From positions 1 to 28,113 of the IMG/VR virus record IMGVR_UViG_3300048828_000145: a stretch of DNA of 28,113 bases; one strand, written 5' to 3'. The DNA is from a virus (taxonomy: Duplodnaviria; Caudoviricetes). The notes under the pieces were generated by a model, which saw only the letters and a program-made list of their open reading frames with translations, searched no databases and was not told where the DNA came from. A program made the translations under genes and the position numbers. Of this stretch, positions 14,121 to 27,172 are shown one piece after another. Every line of letters begins with the position of its first letter. The stretch's first letter is position 1.

Positions 14121-14291
14121 GTGAAACATGAGTTGAAGCAAATCGGGCCGCGCATTCGAGCTGATATAGCGCAGATGCTGAAAGAGCAGTGCGCAAGTCA
14201 GCGCGTCAGCGCGTCACTGACGATAGAGCGACTGATCGTCGATCATCTCAAAAAGGGTGGGTATGTTGTCGAAGATTACGATCGGTATTGA
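14121..14291 (+). CDS. Putative ribbon-helix-helix (Arc-like) regulator (56 aa, not in ORF track)
   Basis: GGAGG RBS, GTG start; MKHELKQIGPRIRADIAQMLKEQCASQRVSASLTIERLIVDHLKK. Confidence 0.65.
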   Translation: MKHELKQIGPRIRADIAQMLKEQCASQRVSASLTIERLIVDHLKKGGYVVEDYDRY

Positions 14292-14721
14292 TCCCGGCTA
14301 TCGCACCGGCGGCGTCGCATTACTGGGCGACAACTTCGCCGAGGTGCACGACCTGCCGGTCTACACTGAAGGTGGCGTCGACGTGATCGCGCTGCTCGAC
14401 ATCATAAACAGCGCCGGCCCTGTGGAGCACATTTGGCTGGAAAAACAACAGGCTATGCCTAAGCAGGGCGTGGTTTCAGTGTTCAAGCTGGGTTTCGCCT
14501 ACGGCCAAATCTTAACGACTGCCGCTTTATCTGGCCACCCGTACAGCGAAGTGCGGCCCGCCAAGTGGAAGTCGAGCATGAATTTGCCAAAGGATAAGGA
14601 CGCCGCACGCCGGCAGGCGCAGCAGTGGTTCCCAGATCTGGCGTTGAGACTGAAGCGCAAGAAAGACGAACACCGTGCCGAGAGTTTACTCATCGCCGCG
14701 TATGGAAGGGGAGAGAAATGA
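14263..14721 (+). CDS. ruvC: RuvC-like Holliday junction resolvase
   Basis: IGIDPG, IWLEKQ, FKLGFAYG, VRPAKWK, RAESLLIA motifs. Confidence 0.85.
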   Translation: MLSKITIGIDPGYRTGGVALLGDNFAEVHDLPVYTEGGVDVIALLDIINSAGPVEHIWLEKQQAMPKQGVVSVFKLGFAYGQILTTAALSGHPYSEVRPAKWKSSMNLPKDKDAARRQAQQWFPDLALRLKRKKDEHRAESLLIAAYGRGEK

Positions 14722-16397: not shown

Positions 16398-18593
16398 ATG
16401 AGCGAGAGATACTTCAGTAAGGTAGCGGAGAGCGCAGTGGCCGACGTGGCCGGTGCGATCAAGGGAAGCCGCAACGAGATTTTAAACAAGGCCGCATTCA
16501 GCCTGGGCCGCCACGCGCACATGGCGCCGGCAAACCTGGACGCGGCGCTAATGGAGCTGCACAGCGCGGCCAAGAACATGGGCCTGCAAGATCACGAGAT
16601 CAAGGCGACAATCGGCAGCGGATTTAAGCGCGGCGGCGACAGCCCGAAAGAGCTCGAAAACTCCGACGCGCTGCCGTACACGCCGTCAGAGTTCGAGCGC
16701 CTGATGACGCGACTGGCCGCCAAGGAAGTGCTGGCGCGTGACGACGAAAGCCGCGCGGACAAGATGCGCAAGGCGCGCGAGATCTGGGAGCGGGGCGTTA
16801 CAATTTCGCGTGACAATGTCGACGCCGTGCGTCCGGCGCTGCTCTACCTCAACTCGCGGGGTCTGAGAGCCAGTACAGCCTCGCATGCGGCGCGGTTTAG
16901 CCCGAATATATACGACGGCCCCGCGATCATGTTTCCCGCGCTCAGTCCAAGCGGAGAAGTGTGCGGCGTGCAGAGCGTGCTGCTCACAGCCGAGGGCCAG
17001 AAGCGAGAGCACAACGGGATCAGCAAATACAGCCGCGGCGTGATCGCCGGCAACGTCATGCGCATCGGCGACGAGCACGAGGGCGGCGTCATCATCATGG
17101 CCGAGGGGCCAGAGGATGCGCTGAGCGTCTACCAGGCGGTCGGCGACGAGGCTACAGTCGTGTGCACGTTTGGCAAGGCTGGCATGTCAACATACCCGGT
17201 GCCGCGCGCATCCGACGTGACGATCTGCGCCGACCCCGATCTCGACGTGGATGCGGTGGCCGACGTGCTGCGCGGCGACGGCAGCACGGACGTGCACGTC
17301 GTGCGCTTCGACATGCTTGGCGTCGACGGCGTGAAGGACGCAAACGACTACCTGCGCGAGACGTCCGCCGAAAAATTGCGTGAGGCATTGGCGCTGGCAA
17401 AGCCGGTCGCGCAGGTGCAGGCCGAGATCGCGCAGTCAGAGCGCAGCTACCCGACGCCATACGATCCAATCGACCCGGCGAGCATACCGGCGCGGCGCTG
17501 GATTTACGGCCAGCACTACATCCGCTCAAACGTGTCCGTGCTGGCATCGGCTGGCGGCGTGGGCAAGACGTCTATGCAGATCGTGGAGGCGCTGGCAATA
17601 TGCACCGGCAGGCCGCTGCTCGGTGAGCCCGTGCACGAGACGTGCAATTGCTGGATAATTAATTTAGAGGATCCGCTCGAGGAGCTTCAACGCAGGGTCG
17701 CGGCGGCGATGATGCACTACAACGTCACGGCAGACGAAATCCGGGGCAAGCTATTCCTAGATGCGGGCCGAGACATGAACATCATATTCGCCAGGCAGGA
17801 CCGCGAGGGCATCACCGTCGACGACGCGCTGGTCGACTACCTGACGGCCAAGATTTCGGAAAACAGCATCGGGCTGGTCTCGATCGACCCGTGGGTTGCT
17901 GCTACAGCCGTGGGAGAGAATGATAATGTCGCAATGAACGCCGCCGTCGGGGCTGTGCGTGCCGTGTGTGACGTTACAGACTGCGCGGCGTCCCTAGTTC
18001 ACCACATACGCAAGGGCAACGGCGACGACGCCACGGTCGACAGCATACGGGGAGCGGGCAGCCTTATCGGCGCAGCCCGTGCAGCGCGCGTCATCAACCG
18101 CGTGTCTCAGGAGGACGCGCTCAAGCTGGGCGTGTCAGAGACTGAGGCGCTGGGCATATTCCGGGTAGACGACGGCAAGTCTAACATGGCGCCGCCGGCA
18201 GCGAAGGCAGTGTACAGGCGCATGGTCGGCGTGCAGCTGCCAAACAAAGAATATGTGGGTGTGGCTGAGCAGTTTTCCATGCCTGACCTCTTCGACGGGG
18301 TGAGCGCCAAGGACGCGATGAAGGTGCAGCGTGACGTCGGGCAGTGCGCCCAGCGCGGCGAGTTTATGCGCCAGAACCCGCAGGCAAAGAACTGGGTGGG
18401 CAACATCGTGGCGCTGCACCTCGACCTGGACGTGGATAAGAAGCACGAGAAGGCCAAGATCAACGCGATCGTCAAGAAGTGGATCGAGACAGACGTGCTG
18501 CGCATCGAGCGCGAGAAAGACTTGCGCACCGGGCGTGACGTGCCGGTGGTGGTCGTGGGCGAGTGGATCACTGGCGAGGAGGCCGGCCTGTGA
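16398..18593 (+). CDS. Primase-helicase (TOPRIM plus AAA_25/RepA-like helicase)
   Basis: AEGPEDALS, ICADPD, KDANDYL; Walker A AGGVGKT; VSIDP; LVHHIRK; RGAGSL. Confidence 0.9.
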   Translation: MSERYFSKVAESAVADVAGAIKGSRNEILNKAAFSLGRHAHMAPANLDAALMELHSAAKNMGLQDHEIKATIGSGFKRGGDSPKELENSDALPYTPSEFERLMTRLAAKEVLARDDESRADKMRKAREIWERGVTISRDNVDAVRPALLYLNSRGLRASTASHAARFSPNIYDGPAIMFPALSPSGEVCGVQSVLLTAEGQKREHNGISKYSRGVIAGNVMRIGDEHEGGVIIMAEGPEDALSVYQAVGDEATVVCTFGKAGMSTYPVPRASDVTICADPDLDVDAVADVLRGDGSTDVHVVRFDMLGVDGVKDANDYLRETSAEKLREALALAKPVAQVQAEIAQSERSYPTPYDPIDPASIPARRWIYGQHYIRSNVSVLASAGGVGKTSMQIVEALAICTGRPLLGEPVHETCNCWIINLEDPLEELQRRVAAAMMHYNVTADEIRGKLFLDAGRDMNIIFARQDREGITVDDALVDYLTAKISENSIGLVSIDPWVAATAVGENDNVAMNAAVGAVRAVCDVTDCAASLVHHIRKGNGDDATVDSIRGAGSLIGAARAARVINRVSQEDALKLGVSETEALGIFRVDDGKSNMAPPAAKAVYRRMVGVQLPNKEYVGVAEQFSMPDLFDGVSAKDAMKVQRDVGQCAQRGEFMRQNPQAKNWVGNIVALHLDLDVDKKHEKAKINAIVKKWIETDVLRIEREKDLRTGRDVPVVVVGEWITGEEAGL

Positions 18594-18841
18594 CGGAATT
18601 CGATGACAAGGCGGCAATGGACCTCGAGGACGAGGATCTCATCATGGCGATCTACTGGTCCGACATATTCCGGGCATGCGCCATCGAGTTTGAGCCTGGC
18701 CTCATGCAGCCGCGCACCGTCGAGGAGCGGATGCGCGTGCAGGAGATTATCGTGGCGACCATGCAGTGCCTGGAGCACGCATTGGTGCGCCTCGACGACC
18801 AGATGGTGGAGGTGCGCAGTGGTGCGGAGTTGTTGCATTAA
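18590..18841 (+). CDS. Hypothetical protein (83 aa)
   Basis: GTGA overlap with the primase stop; GAGGAGG RBS. Confidence 0.65.
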   Translation: MTEFDDKAAMDLEDEDLIMAIYWSDIFRACAIEFEPGLMQPRTVEERMRVQEIIVATMQCLEHALVRLDDQMVEVRSGAELLH

Positions 18842-18845
18842 TGCT

Positions 18846-18982
18846 TCCACACTCACCACACTTGTGGTGTGGGGAGGTGTGGAGAGTGTGGAGAATAAGG
18901 CCATTTCACGTTCCACACCACCACCCCCTATTGTATAGGGTGGTGTGGTGTGGTGTGTGGTGGCGTTTTGAATTGGGTGTGG
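18846..18982. repeat. GTGTGG/CCACAC repeat cluster with inverted repeats; candidate replication origin
   Basis: 7 GTGTGG and 3 CCACAC copies in about 136 bp of intergenic DNA. Confidence 0.6.
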
Positions 18983-19013
18983 TTAACATTGGCAATGGAG
19001 GGGGAGTAGTATC

Positions 19014-19619
19014 ATGGCAACGAAGGTGAGTGGGAAAGCAAAGGCGGGATATGCGAAGGCGCGTAAAGACCGTGGGACGTTTGAGACTGGCACACAGAGC
19101 AAGCCGATCTCGAGGCAGGTCGATGGTCAGCTGGCGCCGTTAGATCGTAAGGCGCGTGAGAAGACGCTGAAGTGGGGCGACAGTCTGCCGGGTCTCGTGA
19201 GCCCTGAGCTCGCTGGACGCTTTGAGGCGGCGTATGACGCGCTGCGGGCGAAGGTGGAAGCGGATGACGTCGTGGCGGTCAACCAGATTGCGACGCAGCT
19301 GATACGCGCCTGGGACGTGCTGGAAGCGGAGGCGGAGGCTAACGGGCATCAGCCGGTGGGTCGGCACGCATACTGCATCGAGATCGCCAGCGGTAACATC
19401 GTGTGCATCGCGCTGCACGACGCGGCCGGCATAAGGCGTGAACATCCAGAGTGGTTGGTGTATGATATGATCGACGCAGCAATCGTGCTCGGGAACAACT
19501 TTAGCAGCGAGTTCATCCAGAAGACGCTGGAGAAGTTTCCCGAGGCAAAGGTGACGCGGTGCATCGGACCAGCGAACAGCACGTTTGACGCTGAGCTGGG
19601 CGACGAGATACCGTTTTGA
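19014..19619 (+). CDS. Hypothetical protein ending in SSB-like tail (GDEIPF)
   Basis: 201 aa; strong GGAGGGGGAG RBS. Confidence 0.75.
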   Translation: MATKVSGKAKAGYAKARKDRGTFETGTQSKPISRQVDGQLAPLDRKAREKTLKWGDSLPGLVSPELAGRFEAAYDALRAKVEADDVVAVNQIATQLIRAWDVLEAEAEANGHQPVGRHAYCIEIASGNIVCIALHDAAGIRREHPEWLVYDMIDAAIVLGNNFSSEFIQKTLEKFPEAKVTRCIGPANSTFDAELGDEIPF

Positions 19620-19633
19620 GAGGAGACGTTTAG

Positions 19634-20089
19634 ATGGGTGCAATTGGCAAGGCTAAGATGGCAGCGCTGGAAGCTGCTGGCGAGGACGAGATCTTCGGCA
19701 TGATCGCGGCGGGCAAGAACGCGTCCGACGTGATCGCTCATTACGATGTGGGCTGGAACCTGTTTCACAAGTGGATCGCGTCCGGCGAGGGCAGAGCTCA
19801 GCGCTACGACGAGGCCAAGCAGATGGCTGGTCACTACTACGCTTCGCAGGCGCAGAAGATTGCAGACGAGATCCACCAGCACGAGGCGAGCGTCAACAGC
19901 GCGAAGCTGGCGGTCGACGTGCTGAAGTGGAAGGCGGCGAAAGCGTCGCCCGAGTATGACACGAGGCAGCGTGACGTCGCGATCAACATCAGCGTGAACG
20001 ACCTGCACGCGCAGGCAGCGCAGCTGCTCAACAGCGTTGGCGGCGACGTCATCGAGGGCGAGGCAGTCGAGGTGGAGGATGACGATTGA
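19634..20089 (+). CDS. terS: Terminase small subunit (Sf6 gp1-like)
   Basis: N-terminal HTH; RYDEAK...AKLAVDVLKWKAAKASPEY; upstream of terL. Confidence 0.75.
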   Translation: MGAIGKAKMAALEAAGEDEIFGMIAAGKNASDVIAHYDVGWNLFHKWIASGEGRAQRYDEAKQMAGHYYASQAQKIADEIHQHEASVNSAKLAVDVLKWKAAKASPEYDTRQRDVAINISVNDLHAQAAQLLNSVGGDVIEGEAVEVEDDD

Positions 20090-20258
20090 GCGCGAAAACG
20101 CACATCGACGCAGCGTTGCAGGCGCGTGCGCGCGTGACATCATCGCGCCGATCCGTCAACAATGTGCCACAATTGGGCACTTTCGGGCGTGCAAATGTGG
20201 CAGAAGTAAGGCATAAGCTGGGCAAAATAGCTAAGTCGCTGAGTTGCAACGATATTAA

Positions 20259-20286
20259 ATTTAACATAATACACATTATGACACTT
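20259..20286 (-). other. dif-like XerC/XerD recombination site
   Basis: Minus strand AAGTGTCATAA-TGTGTA-TTATGTTAAAT versus E. coli dif GGTGCGCATAA-TGTATA-TTATGTTAAAT. Confidence 0.8.
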
Positions 20287-20430
20287 TCGCCCGCTCCGAC
20301 GCCAAATCTCCGGCGAGATCCGCGTTTGACCCCCCCCCTCTCAGATCTCGGGCGGGTGCAAATGCCAATGTCCCCCTCACGCACCCCGAGAAAAATTTTC
20401 CACAAATTCACGCCACAGGAGTGTTAACAC

Positions 20431-21852
20431 ATGAACGCCCCCAGCCCCCAAGATAACCCGTTTCTGAAGTTGATGCGCCGCTACCGCGATGATCCGGTGC
20501 GCTTCTCCCAGGAGGTCATTGGCATCGAGCCCGACGAGTGGCAGGTTGAGCTGTTGGACGCGATCGCCGCCCCAGCGGTGCGCCGCGTATCCGTCAGATC
20601 TGGCCACGGCGTCGGCAAGTCCACGGGCGTCGCCATGGCGGCCATCTGGCACGTCTTGATGCGGTATCCGAGCAAGACGGTGGTCACGGCCCCCACGTCC
20701 GCGCAGCTGTTTGACGCGTGTTTCGCGGAGATGAAGAACGTGGCCAAGCGGCTGAAGCCGCCGTTCAACAATTTGCTGGAGATCAAGTCGGATCGGATCG
20801 AGCTCAAGAGCGCGCCCGAGAGCACGTTTATTTCGTGTCGGACGTCGAGGTCGGAGCAGCCGGAAGCCTTGGCTGGGGTTCACAGCGAGAACGTGTTGCT
20901 GCTGGCGGATGAGGCCAGCGGTATCCCGGAGGCCGTTTTTGAGGCTGCCTCGGGCTCGATGTCCGGCCACAGCGCCACGACGGTGCTGACGGGCAACCCG
21001 ACGCGTAATACTGGCTTCTTTTACGACACCCACACGCGGCTGCGGGATGACTGGTACACGATGCACGTCTCCTGCGTTGATAGCCCGCGCGTGTCCGAGG
21101 ATTTCGTCAAGGACATGGAGCGCCGGTACGGTGAGGACAGCCCGGCGTTTCATGTTCGCGTCTTGGGCAACTTTCCGCCGTCTGAGGAGGACACGGTGAT
21201 CCCGGTCGCGTTGGTTGAGCACGCGTTTAACAACGAGGTGAAGGTGCACGAGGACACGGCGGGCGTCTGGGGCTTAGATGTGGCGCGTCAGGGGGATGAC
21301 AGCAGCGTGCTGTGCAAGCGCCAGGGGCCGGTGGTGCACCCGCTGACTGTGTGGCGCAACTTGGACCTGATGCAGCTGTCCGGCGCTGTGAAGGCGGAAT
21401 ACGATGCGGCGCCCCCGTCAAAGCGCCCCGTTGAGATCATCGTCGACAGCAACGGCTTTGGCGCCGGGGTGTTGGATCGTTTGCGGGAGTTGGGGTTGCC
21501 GGCGCGTGGCTTGAACGTGTCTGAGCGCGCTATGGCGAAGCAGACGTATTTGAACCTGCGCGCGGAGCTGTGGTTCAAGTGCAAGGCGTGGCTTGAGAAT
21601 ATGGATGTGTCGCTGCCCAAGGATGACGCGCTGTATTCGGAGCTTGTGGCGCCGCGTTACATGTTTACGTCGTCTGGCAAGATCCAGGTTGAGAGCAAGG
21701 ACAGCATGAAAAAGCGCGGCGTGCGATCTCCCGACCGCGCCGACGCGCTGTGCTTAGCTTTGGCCAATGACCACACGACCATGGCCTACGGGACGTCGGC
21801 CAGCGGCTCCTGGGGGAAGCCGCTGAAGCGTGGTATTCGCGGGGTGGTTTAG
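20431..21852 (+). CDS. terL: Terminase large subunit
   Basis: RSGHGVGKS Walker A; LLADEASG Walker B; GNPTR; GLDVARQGDD and SPDRADA nuclease motifs. Confidence 0.95.
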   Translation: MNAPSPQDNPFLKLMRRYRDDPVRFSQEVIGIEPDEWQVELLDAIAAPAVRRVSVRSGHGVGKSTGVAMAAIWHVLMRYPSKTVVTAPTSAQLFDACFAEMKNVAKRLKPPFNNLLEIKSDRIELKSAPESTFISCRTSRSEQPEALAGVHSENVLLLADEASGIPEAVFEAASGSMSGHSATTVLTGNPTRNTGFFYDTHTRLRDDWYTMHVSCVDSPRVSEDFVKDMERRYGEDSPAFHVRVLGNFPPSEEDTVIPVALVEHAFNNEVKVHEDTAGVWGLDVARQGDDSSVLCKRQGPVVHPLTVWRNLDLMQLSGAVKAEYDAAPPSKRPVEIIVDSNGFGAGVLDRLRELGLPARGLNVSERAMAKQTYLNLRAELWFKCKAWLENMDVSLPKDDALYSELVAPRYMFTSSGKIQVESKDSMKKRGVRSPDRADALCLALANDHTTMAYGTSASGSWGKPLKRGIRGVV

Positions 21853-22469
21853 GCGTTCTCGACCTGATCGACGAGCATCTGGCCATTTTCGACCCACTGC
21901 TCGAGAGTGAGGTCTTTGAGGCGCGGTTGGTCGACGTCGAGAAATGCGACGACTTGGTCTTTAATCCTGCCGGTGGCCATGTAGTGGAGTGTCAGGTTTG
22001 TGCCTGGCTCCTTGAGGTATACGAAACGCCACGCCACTTTCATGTATGCCGGCGCCGACTTTGGCGGGTTTTCGTTCTTGACCCTCATCATTTCGAGGTT
22101 TGGGCACCCGATTGCGTCGAGTATGAGGTCGCGCGTCAGGCGCTTTGGCTTGGGCATGTATTTCGCCTTTGCGGTCTCCCACTCTTGTAGGCTTACGTTC
22201 AACTCCCGCGCCTCGCTCGAAAACGGCGTCTCTGACGGCGATATAGCGTTAATGACGTCTGACAAGTCTCTGCGCGTCTGGCGCTCTTGCTCGATCCGCG
22301 CCGCGACGTTTCGCTTGGCCTCTTGGACCTCCGCATAGTTGAGCTCCTGCGCCAGCCCCTTGGCGAGCTCAAGCGCCTCCGCCGACTTCTGCTCGGTGTT
22401 GGCGGTGATTGCGAGGTACAGGCCCAGCTCGACGGCTTCCTGCGTGTTTTGTGGTGTGTTGTTGTGCAT
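21849..22469 (-). CDS. Mosaic accessory protein containing a capsid-like segment
   Basis: GGGAG RBS favours start at 22469; internal RRDLSDVINAISPSETPFSS...QEWET. Confidence 0.7.
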   Translation of the reverse strand: MHNNTPQNTQEAVELGLYLAITANTEQKSAEALELAKGLAQELNYAEVQEAKRNVAARIEQERQTRRDLSDVINAISPSETPFSSEARELNVSLQEWETAKAKYMPKPKRLTRDLILDAIGCPNLEMMRVKNENPPKSAPAYMKVAWRFVYLKEPGTNLTLHYMATGRIKDQVVAFLDVDQPRLKDLTLEQWVENGQMLVDQVENA

Positions 22470-22513
22470 TTTCATTCTCCCGGTTGTGGGGAGCCGGAGC
22501 TCCCCGTGTTGTG

Positions 22514-22774
22514 TTAAACAATGTCGCACGGCTTGTGCAGCTCACCATTGTGCATCACGCGGCGGATCGCGGCGGAGGCGTTACCCATTGACTTGACCCA
22601 TGCGTGGGCAAGGTCGCCAGCGTGACCGAGGTCGTCAGCGTCAAGCTCAACGAAACGATCAGCAACATTCATGTCGCTGGATGTTTCAACATGGACAACA
22701 AACGCTGGCTTGCGATCGACCATGCGACCTTGAGCAGCCTCGGATGAAAGCAGAAAAGAAAGAGAATGTGCCAT
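22514..22774 (-). CDS. Hypothetical early protein (86 aa)
   Basis: GGAGG RBS before ATG 22774; downstream of a promoter. Confidence 0.7.
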   Translation of the reverse strand: MAHSLSFLLSSEAAQGRMVDRKPAFVVHVETSSDMNVADRFVELDADDLGHAGDLAHAWVKSMGNASAAIRRVMHNGELHKPCDIV

Positions 22775-22824
22775 AGGAACCTCCATATCGGCGTGCGTTG
22801 GCGGGATTGCCTCGGCTATATCAG

Positions 22825-22855
22825 TTAAACTAATGTTAACATCTACAGACTACAA
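22825..22855 (-). promoter_or_regulatory. Putative sigma70 promoter overlapped by a full CtrA box
   Basis: Minus strand TTGTAG-17 bp-TAGTTT; TTAA-ACTAATG-TTAAC at 22825-22840. Confidence 0.6.
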
Positions 22856-22909
22856 CCCCTAAAATGCAAAAAACTGGCCTCCGGCAAACTTTTTTGTTAT
22901 CCTGCGCCT

Positions 22910-22990
22910 GTTAGCGGCTACCCTCCCACCCAGCCGTTGAGCTTTCTGGCTCCCCCGCGCGCTTGGTTCTTCCCCCAGGTGCGCGGGGTT
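22910..22990 (+). ncRNA. Candidate two-hairpin small RNA with CU-rich loops
   Basis: Hairpins 22911-22940 and 22953-22988; extended -10 TGtTATCCT at 22895-22903. Confidence 0.4.
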
Positions 22991-23017
22991 ACACTGAAGG
23001 CGGGTTTGGTGTATTAT
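22989..23017 (+). promoter_or_regulatory. Putative promoter for the 23073 gene
   Basis: TTACAC-17 bp-TATTAT. Confidence 0.4.
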
Positions 23018-23072
23018 TGTGGGAAGAGGGCTTAAATAAGCGCATGTGCGCAAATAACATCGGGGGCATCAC

Positions 23073-24943: not shown

Positions 24944-25059
24944 CGGGTGGCCTGGGTCACAGGCCGACAGCAAATCTGGCAGACCTAGAAGACGAGTTGG
25001 AGCGTAAGGCGCAACAAGATGCGCGCGAGTTTGAGAAGGCGAAAAAAGATGGACTATGA
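24931..25059 (+). CDS. Small charged protein (42 aa, not in ORF track)
   Basis: MAKIAGGLGHRPTANLADLEDELERKAQQDAREFEKAKKDGL; bridges the 23615 gene and the portal; weak RBS. Confidence 0.35.
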   Translation: MAKIAGGLGHRPTANLADLEDELERKAQQDAREFEKAKKDGL

Positions 25060-27172
25060 GATAAACGAAATGGCCTCCGAGCTCGAGGCTGAACTGAACC
25101 CGGACGTCATGGACGATCAGGAGCTGCAAGGCATCGTCGGCAACGAGATCGACGACGCTATAGACTTCATCGACAACTGGATCTCCCCGATCCGCGCCAC
25201 GGCGACGCAATACTACCGGGGCGAGCCGTTTGGCGACGAGGAAGAGGGCCGCAGCCAAGTTGTCAGCATGGACGTGCGGGATACCGTACAGGCGATCATG
25301 CCGTCCCTCATGCGCATCTTTAACGGATCCGACCGCACCGTCGAATACGTCCCGCAAAACGCGGAGGACGTGCCGGCGGCAAAGCAGGCCACCGAGTACG
25401 CCAACTTCATCATCAATCGCGACAACCGCGGCTTCCTGGAGATGCACAGCGCATTCATGGACGCGCTGGTGCGCAAGGTCGGCATCCTCAAGTGTTACTG
25501 GGAAGACAAGACCGAGTTTGACACAATCGAGTACACCGGCATCGACGACACCGCCCTGGCGGCACTCATGGCTGACCCAGCCGCCGAGGTTGACATTACC
25601 GTGAGCACGCCGGTCGGCGAGCCGCAGATCGACCCTACGACTGGCCAGATCATCATGCCTCCCATGTCACACGACCTGCGCGTCACCTACACCCGGCCAG
25701 ACGGACGCGTGAAGGTGGAGGCTCTACCGCCGGAGGAGTTCCTGATCTCCCGCGAGGCTAAATCCGTCGAGGAAGCCGAATACGTTGCGCATCGCCGCAT
25801 CGTGACCGTGTCGGAGCTTGTAGCTATGGGCTACGATTACGACGAGGTCTACAACCTGTCATCGACCCACGACGACATGGACACCAACGTCGAGCGCAAC
25901 ACGCGCAACCCGGCATTATCAAACGACATGAATTCGCGCCAAGACCCGGCGATGCGTAAGGTTCTATACGTTGAGAACTACATCCGCGTAGACTACGACG
26001 GTGACGGCATCGCCGAGCTGCGCAAGATCTGCACCGGTGGAGATGGCAACGTCATTCTCAACAACGAGCCGTGCGACATGGCGCCCTTCGCCACACTATG
26101 CCCAGACCCCGAGCCGCACGACTTTTTCGGCATGTCCGTCGCCGACACCGTGATGGACATCCAACGCATCAAGTCAGTCGTCATGCGCAACTCGCTGGAC
26201 AGCCTAAGCCTCAGTATTCACCCGAGAATTGCTGTTGTCGAAGGCATGGTGAACATGGACGATGCTATGAATGTAGAGGTCGGATCAATCGTCCGTCAGC
26301 GCGCTCCGGGCTCGATCCAGCAGCTCACCGTGCCGTTTGTCGGCCAGCAGGCATTCCCGGTCCTGAACTACATGGACGAGGTCAAGGAGGCTCGCACAGG
26401 CATCTCCAAGGCGTCCATGGGTTTAGACGCCGGCGCCCTACAGTCGAGCACCGCAACCGCCGTGGCAGCCACTGTGAGCGCCGCACAGCAGCACATTGAG
26501 ATGATTGCCAGGGTATTCGCTGAAACCGGCGTTAAGCGCCTGTACGAGCTTGTCCTGTACAACATCACCACGCACCAGGACAAGGCGCGGATGATCCGCT
26601 TGAACAACGACTTCGTCGAAATGGACCCACGGGTCTGGAACGCGAATATGGATGTCTCTGTCAACGTAGCCCTGGGCCGCGGGACTGACACTGAGCGGAT
26701 GATGATGCTGCGCCAGATCGGCGAGATGCAGAAGGAAGCCATGTCGACTATGGGGCCGCAGAACCCGCTGACCGACATCTCCAAGCTGAGCAACACGCTC
26801 AAGGAGATGACGTCGCTGGCCGGCTTCAAGGACACGTCGCAGTTCTGGAGTGATCCTGCGAAGTTCCAGCCGCCACCATCAGACAACAAGCCAGACATCA
26901 ACGAGCAGCTGATCCAGGTGCAGATCCAGCAGATACAGGCGGACATGCAGAAGAAGGCGGCAGACCTTCAGCTGAAGCGCGAGCAGATGATGATGGAAGA
27001 CGACCGCAAGCGCGACGAGCTCGAGGCCGACATCCGCGTCAAGGCGGAGGAGCTGAAGGCGAAGTACGGCACGCAGCTTGACGTCGCCCAGATCCGGGCC
27101 GACATGGCGATCAACCGCGAAGTGATGAAGGCGCAGGCCGACATAATCACGGAGGCGACGCGTGAAGACTAA
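25049..27172 (+). CDS. Portal protein (P22/SU10-like)
   Basis: YYRGEPFGDEEEGRSQVVSMDVRD; PHDFFGMS; C-terminal coiled-coil barrel; start at 25049 preferred. Confidence 0.9.
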   Translation: MDYEINEMASELEAELNPDVMDDQELQGIVGNEIDDAIDFIDNWISPIRATATQYYRGEPFGDEEEGRSQVVSMDVRDTVQAIMPSLMRIFNGSDRTVEYVPQNAEDVPAAKQATEYANFIINRDNRGFLEMHSAFMDALVRKVGILKCYWEDKTEFDTIEYTGIDDTALAALMADPAAEVDITVSTPVGEPQIDPTTGQIIMPPMSHDLRVTYTRPDGRVKVEALPPEEFLISREAKSVEEAEYVAHRRIVTVSELVAMGYDYDEVYNLSSTHDDMDTNVERNTRNPALSNDMNSRQDPAMRKVLYVENYIRVDYDGDGIAELRKICTGGDGNVILNNEPCDMAPFATLCPDPEPHDFFGMSVADTVMDIQRIKSVVMRNSLDSLSLSIHPRIAVVEGMVNMDDAMNVEVGSIVRQRAPGSIQQLTVPFVGQQAFPVLNYMDEVKEARTGISKASMGLDAGALQSSTATAVAATVSAAQQHIEMIARVFAETGVKRLYELVLYNITTHQDKARMIRLNNDFVEMDPRVWNANMDVSVNVALGRGTDTERMMMLRQIGEMQKEAMSTMGPQNPLTDISKLSNTLKEMTSLAGFKDTSQFWSDPAKFQPPPSDNKPDINEQLIQVQIQQIQADMQKKAADLQLKREQMMMEDDRKRDELEADIRVKAEELKAKYGTQLDVAQIRADMAINREVMKAQADIITEATRED

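Follow-up and report, generated by a model that had tools for sequence, protein, structure and literature searches.

The window, by which we mean the whole stretch of 28,113 nucleotides analysed here, is a partial podophage genome coding for an SU10 portal, an ejection protein, a primase, an exonuclease VIII and a Holliday junction resolvase, and its relatives form a family of marine podophages with genomes of approximately 37 kb. Parts of the window are present in 20 public runs, nearly all of seawater or marine origin, and more than half of its words were found in two of them. A 28-mer resembling the XerC/D recombination site dif is located in the gap between the two terminase genes (341 bp, 20090-20430). 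The relevant features are listed below.

14257..14721, plus strand: phage Holliday junction resolvase (phrog_1770, E 2.5e-27)
19634..20089, plus strand: terS, terminase small subunit, 151 aa (phrog_1482, E 4.5e-14; Pfam Sf6_terminase, E 3.7e-12)
20090..20430, no strand: terS-terL non-coding gap, 341 bp, aligned across 18 sequences; putative right part of a direct terminal repeat, as judged from phiM5
20232..20244, plus strand: degenerate IHF-like box with 2 mismatches in the window, its start 27 bp left of the 28-mer
20259..20269, minus strand: XerD-type arm TTATGTTAAAT, identical to the E. coli dif arm
20270..20275, minus strand: 6-bp central region TGTGTA, diverse, with a fixed last base
20276..20286, minus strand: XerC-type arm AAGTGTCATAA, variable in its outer six bases but with a conserved inner CATAA
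20330..20358, plus strand: poly-C run, then a G-rich arm, in an order kept across the family, phiM5 and C72C1
20381..20399, plus strand: GCACCC motif and A/T tract, compared with the repeat end of phiM5
20431..21852, plus strand: terL, terminase large subunit, 473 aa (phrog_2, E 1.5e-42; 52% identical to phiM5 terL)
25019..27172, plus strand: SU10-type portal, a podophage marker (Pfam SU10_portal, E 7.4e-210)

Directly after terL lies a variable island (window 21849-23053) of small minus-strand ORFs, which differs among near-identical relatives. A second variable stretch follows just past the primase gene (18563-19030), with alignments of close relatives breaking near 18588. The 201-aa ORF directly before terS (19014-19619) belongs to no known family and gave unnamed viral clusters (<0.9) in the Atlas.

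The plus strand of the window reads ATTTAACATAATACACATTATGACACTT at 20259-20286, corresponding to AAGTGTCATAA-TGTGTA-TTATGTTAAAT on the minus strand, i.e. an 11-bp arm, a 6-bp centre and a second 11-bp arm. Comparison with dif of E. coli MG1655, taken from the table in the supplement of PMC3025954, revealed identity at 11/11 positions of the XerD arm, 5/6 of the spacer and 5/11 of the XerC arm, the latter being the inner CATAA only. This confirms the layout given in an earlier, sequence-only reading of the locus (11-6-11 with an exact XerD arm, a spacer differing by one base and a retained CATAA). No second match with up to two mismatches exists in the window, and 100 shuffles gave a mean of 0.01. 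The position in an AT-rich patch of a gap of roughly 340 bp was also described correctly: the two 20-bp blocks over the 28-mer contain 85% and 65% AT, compared to mostly 25-60% elsewhere in the gap, with one A/T tract block at 75%. Hairpin folding and a promoter scan of the gap gave no strong signal, and folding of the poly-C/G-rich element did not exceed that of shuffled sequences (z -0.75). The predicted box left of the 28-mer, a degenerate match to the IHF consensus, has 0-1 mismatches in some relatives. It is present with at most one mismatch in 12 of 54 unique contexts versus 1.4% of 6090 background windows, mostly at an offset of 26-27 bp from the 28-mer and once at 37 bp.

Conservation was analysed in viral loci that have a related terL, of which the best 80 of 367 were selected (79-99% identity, many near-duplicates); eight were dropped because they start too near terL. 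The site is kept in 71 of the remaining 72 loci; it occurs in one copy on the minus strand, 80-260 bp before terL, and no match elsewhere was found in the 497,732 bases of the terL-selected loci. A second, overlapping set was selected by terS (best 80 of 294 loci). Here, all 68 loci reaching terL carry the site, 65 with up to two mismatches (64 on the minus strand, one on the plus strand) and three with three mismatches, two of which are inverted. The other 12 loci end in or just past the gap, eight after the site and four before it. Altogether the site is inverted in three relatives (L340:2094-2121, L341, L342), which share a palindromic TATATA spacer and still have the IHF-like box on the terS side, left of the site. 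C72C1 (44% terL identity) likewise has the site between terS and terL, flanked by the same motifs. The one loss concerns L022, close to L021 and L023, where the site is missing from the terS-terL gap and several short repeats are present instead; this record is 72% complete and gave no tyrosine integrase match. Nor was the site found in the stretches retrieved for three Manatee Spring relatives (around terL) and for DSL-LC05 (around terS). In the wider portal lineage, phiEco32 lacks it within its first 4 kb and LUZ24 within its last 3 kb.

Nucleotide diversity was determined for 12 near sequences chosen by terL (≥97% identity) and not by the motif. For the XerD arm it amounts to 0.015; in the XerC arm it is 0 for the inner five bases and 0.36 for the outer six, compared to about 0.10 for the remainder of the gap and 0.12 for third positions of terL. 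The XerD arm is thus more conserved than the XerC arm, with the inner XerC bases conserved most, as in the core sites of the dif type, for which a fixed XerD arm, inner XerC arm and 6-bp centre have been described (PMC2731167). The centre behaves differently: chromosomal dif spacers are conserved within species (PMC2731167), whereas eight spacers occur in the 20 contexts of the window's clade. Among the 335 overlapping 6-mers of the gap is as diverse as the spacer, which reaches 0.44 in the 12 near sequences. Pooling 88 unique contexts yielded 54 different 28-mers with 33 spacers, and the last spacer base is A in 88/88 contexts, although this position was left free in the search pattern. Spacer diversity exceeds that of the flanks in the window's clade (0.41 vs. 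0.12) and falls below it in a second clade of 28 contexts (0.04 vs. 0.19; TGTCGA in 24). The spacer pattern is therefore lineage-specific and hypervariability is not general. The spacer deviates from the surrounding sequence in either large clade; this suggests that its bases matter, as would be expected from strand exchange.

The sequence-only reading had further suggested that the phage, having no visible integrase, may lysogenise by means of the site, or resolve circular dimers with host Xer. A conserved XerC/D-type site and the lack of an integrase were borne out, while lysogeny at host dif was not. No integrase or recombinase family matched any of 41 window ORFs (chosen from 147 listed), and none of 16 records of relatives (completeness of at least 90% in 12 cases) contains a tyrosine integrase or resolvase (PF00589, PF00239). 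The closest relative with the same 28-mer has no match to PF00589 in its whole record; the part of it that is absent from the window comprises the capsid and unannotated genes (12 ORFs). FtsK-gamma and DUF3653 did not match in the 16 relative records either. Taken together, these comparisons support the 28-mer as a conserved and selected XerC/D-type site in an integrase-free family of tailed phages.

Integrated forms were sought at several levels. All 15 metagenome loci are collinear with the window across the site, with phage sequence on both sides, and 19 viral loci were compared as well. Those among them reaching beyond the site are likewise collinear and without a junction, so that no break within the 28-mer was seen in either set. 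The scan of 185,579 genomes (one per species) revealed no prophage and a single hit. This hit was rejected as a prophage, since the matching stretch, on a 17-kb contig of an Opitutae MAG, is of phage sequence only and its site is unbroken. No joint at the site was present among the matches listed for contigs of four runs on 18500-23000, bearing in mind that contigs drop rare forms, and unitig ends at 20360 fit length variants of the poly-C run. Both triplets flanking the spacer centre vary within the window's clade.

The site may nevertheless be read as an attP, through which XerCD would integrate the phage at host dif as in the integrative mobile elements exploiting Xer (IMEX), leaving terS and terL at opposite ends of the prophage. 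This would fit the lack of an integrase in the 16 records, while phiM5 has an integrase and no site. Furthermore, VGJ-phi requires homology on the XerC side only (PMC5357621), the TGT triplet of the window is the common gammaproteobacterial spacer sequence on that side, and one clade conserves its spacer. Against this stand the missing junctions in the 15 metagenome loci and the viral loci extending past the site, the genome scan with its one phage-only contig (with one genome per species, a thin sample), and the XerC-side triplets, which vary within the near-identical clade of the window (TGT, TCC, CCG, TAC, GCG, CCT). The same design is moreover found in rV5-like phages, the repeat of which is in 0/5,426 E. 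coli genomes. Integration at host dif is thus unsupported, and we regard it as quite improbable; the reading is only weakened, because attachment sites of gokushoviruses vary in spacer and still integrate via XerCD (PMC7062461).

The XerD arm matches 234 entries of the dif table, with gamma-, beta- and alphaproteobacteria and Bacteroidetes among the matches listed, and did not single out a host. Opitutae are not supported as host, since the match is a phage-only contig and no other exact site is present in the MAG. The terL homologues carry no host names. The phiM5 lineage has been linked to SAR116 phages (PMC10386132), which is a host lead only, and SAR116 has no entry in the dif table. The host is presumably a proteobacterium with a matching XerD arm.

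The distribution of the motif was surveyed in 80 loci with an exact match, drawn at random from 121 found in 8 of 64 IMG/VR parts, and 115 flanking ORFs were scanned (119 chosen, four duplicates dropped). In at least 23 of the 80 loci terS or terL adjoins the motif, and four of these 23 belong to the window's family. The terminase-adjoining motifs occur in both orientations and sometimes upstream of terS. Spacers ending in TATA are found in 0/23 terminase neighbours versus 20/57 other loci, which include inovirus-like elements (Fisher p 4e-4; loci not independent). Selection for spacers that avoid the host spacer is not claimed, because at this GC content a TATA end would be rare even among neutral spacers. 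From the sampled parts we estimate that about 1000 IMG/VR stretches carry the exact motif; together with 5063 terL proteins matching at E ≤ 1e-100 this suggests that the design is common in the sea. Two further short blastn queries returned mostly rV5-like phages, microviruses and probable chance matches in coding DNA.

Several single loci deserve mention. In two tailed-phage-like loci (L159:1201-1222, L181:1201-1222) the site has the canonical spacer TGTATA and lies next to an Rz-like spanin, the site of L159 being equal to E. coli dif; they are possibly tailed prophages at or beside host dif. At L122:1201-1222 a dif-like site with the spacer GCACCA lies between terL and the portal gene, a position unlike that in the window's family. 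One shared 28-mer was found in L111, L114, L160 and L188 (each 1201-1222). It is located in the terS-terL gap of one phage, ahead of terS in two others and ahead of an HNH gene in the fourth, which suggests that the end module is mobile as a whole. Dif-like sites also occur in gene-poor stretches of Pseudoalteromonas phage H101 (L238:2502) and Rheinheimera phage Barba3A (L242:2501), and L132 and L133 represent one low-GC viral contig with two dif-like sites about 1.8 kb apart, resembling a pdif module.

The sequence-only reading did not take the genome ends into account. The closest cultured relative with a named host is phiM5, the terL of which is 52% identical to that of the window. Its genome has an exact end repeat of 357 bp, the left copy of which stops 35 bp before the annotated terL. 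The repeat boundary follows the poly-C/G-rich element and lies one base before GCACCC, which is followed by an A tract. In the window and most relatives the same boundary elements are present in the same order (20330-20399 of the window). Furthermore, the phiM5 repeat covers most of a short ORF which shares only the VIEGEAV motif with terS of the window and represents a putative terS. PhiM5 itself lacks the site and has an integrase. According to this comparison the terS-terL gap is probably a genome end with a terminal repeat spanning the 28-mer, and this one relative with 52% identity places the predicted right end near 20380, at a distance of about 95 bp from the site. If the gap is such an end, the likely Xer substrate would be the phage's two terminal copies and not the host chromosome.

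Contig ends were also considered as evidence for a terminus, as 7 of 36 loci stop within 260 bp right of the site versus four in the next 1240 bp, and 5 of 80 loci begin about 35 bp or less from the terL start. This clustering was set aside, since poly-C/G runs break assemblies and explain it equally well. In one case a public contig (G014, L108:1-31) ends just before the GCACCC of its relatives, where the boundary of the phiM5 repeat would fall; its end carries a tail which we take to be adapter-like. Linkage among 13 unique near genomes (207 SNPs) showed r2 values of 0.11-0.24 throughout and no drop at the site, an analysis with little power to locate a crossover hotspot or a terminus.

Six relatives assemble as closed circles, with end overlaps (59-123 bp in the three measured) that are not at the gap. 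Genomes with terminal repeats can also assemble as circles. These circles fit an alternative, in which the site is not at a genome end and XerCD resolves dimers or catenanes of circular phage DNA, formed in replication or in a plasmid-like carrier state, as at cer, psi and pdif. The single site per genome and the free spacer agree with this, and the phased IHF-like box could be an accessory element. However, the 41 window ORFs include none named as a gene for partition or plasmid replication, and the links to terminase genes (23/80) and to end repeats would be surprising for a site that could lie anywhere, so that we consider dimer resolution unlikely.

Sites at genome ends were found in cultured phages unrelated to the window's family. 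EdH4, Hena1, RpY2, RpT1 and p2137 were reached by short blastn with the site and do not represent a survey; in the five opened end-aligned records, which were thus reached through the motif, the site is less than 300 bp from an end (5/5). The rV5-like myophage EdH4 has an end repeat of 459 bp with E. coli-identical arms and the spacer TGGGTA at both ends, and this repeat, which matches 120 phage records, is the one absent from the 5,426 E. coli genomes. The rV5-like phage Hena1 has an annotated end repeat of 519 bp, with E. coli-identical arms and the spacer GGTGTA at both ends. Sites at both ends are also present in the T7-like Ralstonia phages RpY2, with a near-exact repeat of about 237 bp, and RpT1, while the site of p2137 lies 125 bp from the genome start. 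In these three the XerD arm is identical to that of R. solanacearum dif and the spacers differ from its TTTATC.

These phages bear on the proposal that the motif is bound by a phage protein, e.g. the terminase, or is a relic, its likeness to dif being due to convergence. Such an origin would agree with the constant vicinity of packaging genes in the window's family and with the loss in some relatives (L022). It is hardly compatible with an asymmetric pattern that fits the conservation profile of dif (PMC2731167), nor with the fact that phages with unrelated terminases carry arms matching the dif sites of their own hosts, and appears highly improbable.

We favour, with a probability of about one half, the explanation that the 28-mer is part of a direct terminal repeat and that host XerCD joins the two copies, giving a circle or concatemer. 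All steps of this mechanism are inferred. The injected linear DNA would carry two identical sites in direct repeat, one per end, which would be synapsed by XerCD, perhaps aided by a bend at the IHF-like box. Strand exchange would then close the circle or join genomes head to tail, thereby restoring the adjacency of terS and terL and providing replication and packaging with the circular or concatemeric DNA they require. One exchange by XerC might suffice if the phage resolvase (14257..14721) or replication completed it, in which case FtsK would not be needed, by analogy with cer (PMC5357621). As the two partners would be identical, the reaction would work whatever the spacer and the orientation, and a non-host spacer would limit recombination with the host chromosome. 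End-joining by Xer is probably a non-essential helper route beside homologous recombination of the repeat. The 28-mer would work like a self-recombining Xer site.

As a tentative generalisation, which may well prove too broad, at least three unrelated integrase-free lineages (marine phiM5-related podophages, rV5-like myophages and T7-like Ralstonia phages) could have independently placed a dif with host-type arms and non-host spacer in a terminal repeat. XerCD would circularise or concatemerise their genomes, and the spacer would serve as a self-identity code against the chromosome and co-infecting relatives.

KOPS-type motifs, the sequence of which may differ in the phage's host, occur once in the window and one to five times in each of five relatives, with no clear convergence on the site. 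The strongest evidence against an essential role of Xer comes from LL12, an rV5-like phage carrying the site: in a screen of 3,985 Keio knockouts six genes were required, all for LPS (PMC7229145). The word xer is absent from the main text and one supplement of this paper, and the screen indicates that XerCD is not essential there at the plating threshold of about 20-fold.

The result obtained with LL12 would also be expected if XerCD or a recruited factor merely bound near the end, where it might shield or organise the end, recruit topoisomerase IV or be titrated away from the host chromosome, without any strand exchange; xer mutants are not among the blocking knockouts named in the screen (PMC7229145). 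Conserved arms with a varying spacer, the lack of an activator, of KOPS convergence and of a crossover signal point in the same direction. Nevertheless, mere binding does not account for the preserved 6-bp spacing or the invariant last spacer base (A in 88/88 contexts), and a passive linker should drift with its flanks, whereas the spacer is far more or far less diverse than these. We therefore judge binding alone rather unlikely, and return to joining of the terminal copies as the preferred explanation.

If true, joining by XerCD would add a host-run step to the ways in which linear phage genomes become circles or concatemers, and would be a third way in which mobile elements exploit Xer, after integration and the resolution of plasmid multimers. 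Hijacking of Xer is known from filamentous phages, small tailless phages, islands and plasmids. None of the titles and abstracts returned by a search of the literature, which covered open-access records and left most subscription papers uncovered, dealt with dif sites next to terminases or within the terminal repeats of tailed phages. It also follows as a caution that a dif-like site need not signal lysogeny in metagenomic phages or in rV5-like therapy candidates.

Compared to known systems, the site shares with chromosomal dif of the XerCD/FtsK system of Proteobacteria the 11-6-11 layout, an XerD arm equal to that of E. coli and many others, the inner XerC arm, a low-GC intergenic position and the single copy. 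It differs in being located on a phage, in a spacer that varies within a near-identical clade and in showing no clear convergence of KOPS. With the attP of IMEX (CTX-phi, VGJ-phi, TLC-phi, enterogokushoviruses, GGI) it has in common the combination of an integrase-free element and a dif-like site. Unlike these, the window represents a tailed dsDNA phage, no integrated form of which was found, and its site is tied to terminase genes and probably lies in a terminal repeat. Elements of the TLC-phi type are further set apart by DUF3653, a domain putatively linked to the TLC activator XafT, which had no match in the 16 relative records.

Plasmid Xer sites (cer, psi, pdif) resemble the 28-mer as self-self sites in which the spacer is unlike that of the host and an accessory element may lie alongside, but the substrate proposed for the 28-mer is a linear genome or concatemer. 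Its candidate accessory element is an IHF-like box, found about 27 bp away and mostly on the XerD side, and differs from the PepA/ArgR region of about 180 bp described for plasmid sites (PMC5357621). The Vequintavirinae EdH4 and Hena1 and the Serkorvirus-like T7 relatives RpY2 and RpT1 share with the window host-type arms in a dif-like site, in their case with a non-host spacer and located 80-290 bp from a genome end. Like the window they have no tyrosine integrase, as searched in EdH4 and Hena1 and as annotated in RpY2 and RpT1. Their repeats are visible in the records, whereas that of the window is predicted, and the rV5-like repeat examined is not beside terminase genes. A further parallel is loxP/Cre of P1, a recombination site within the terminal redundancy that joins the ends of the injected DNA; in the window's phage, which encodes no phage recombinase, this task would be carried out by the two-protein recombinase XerCD of the host.
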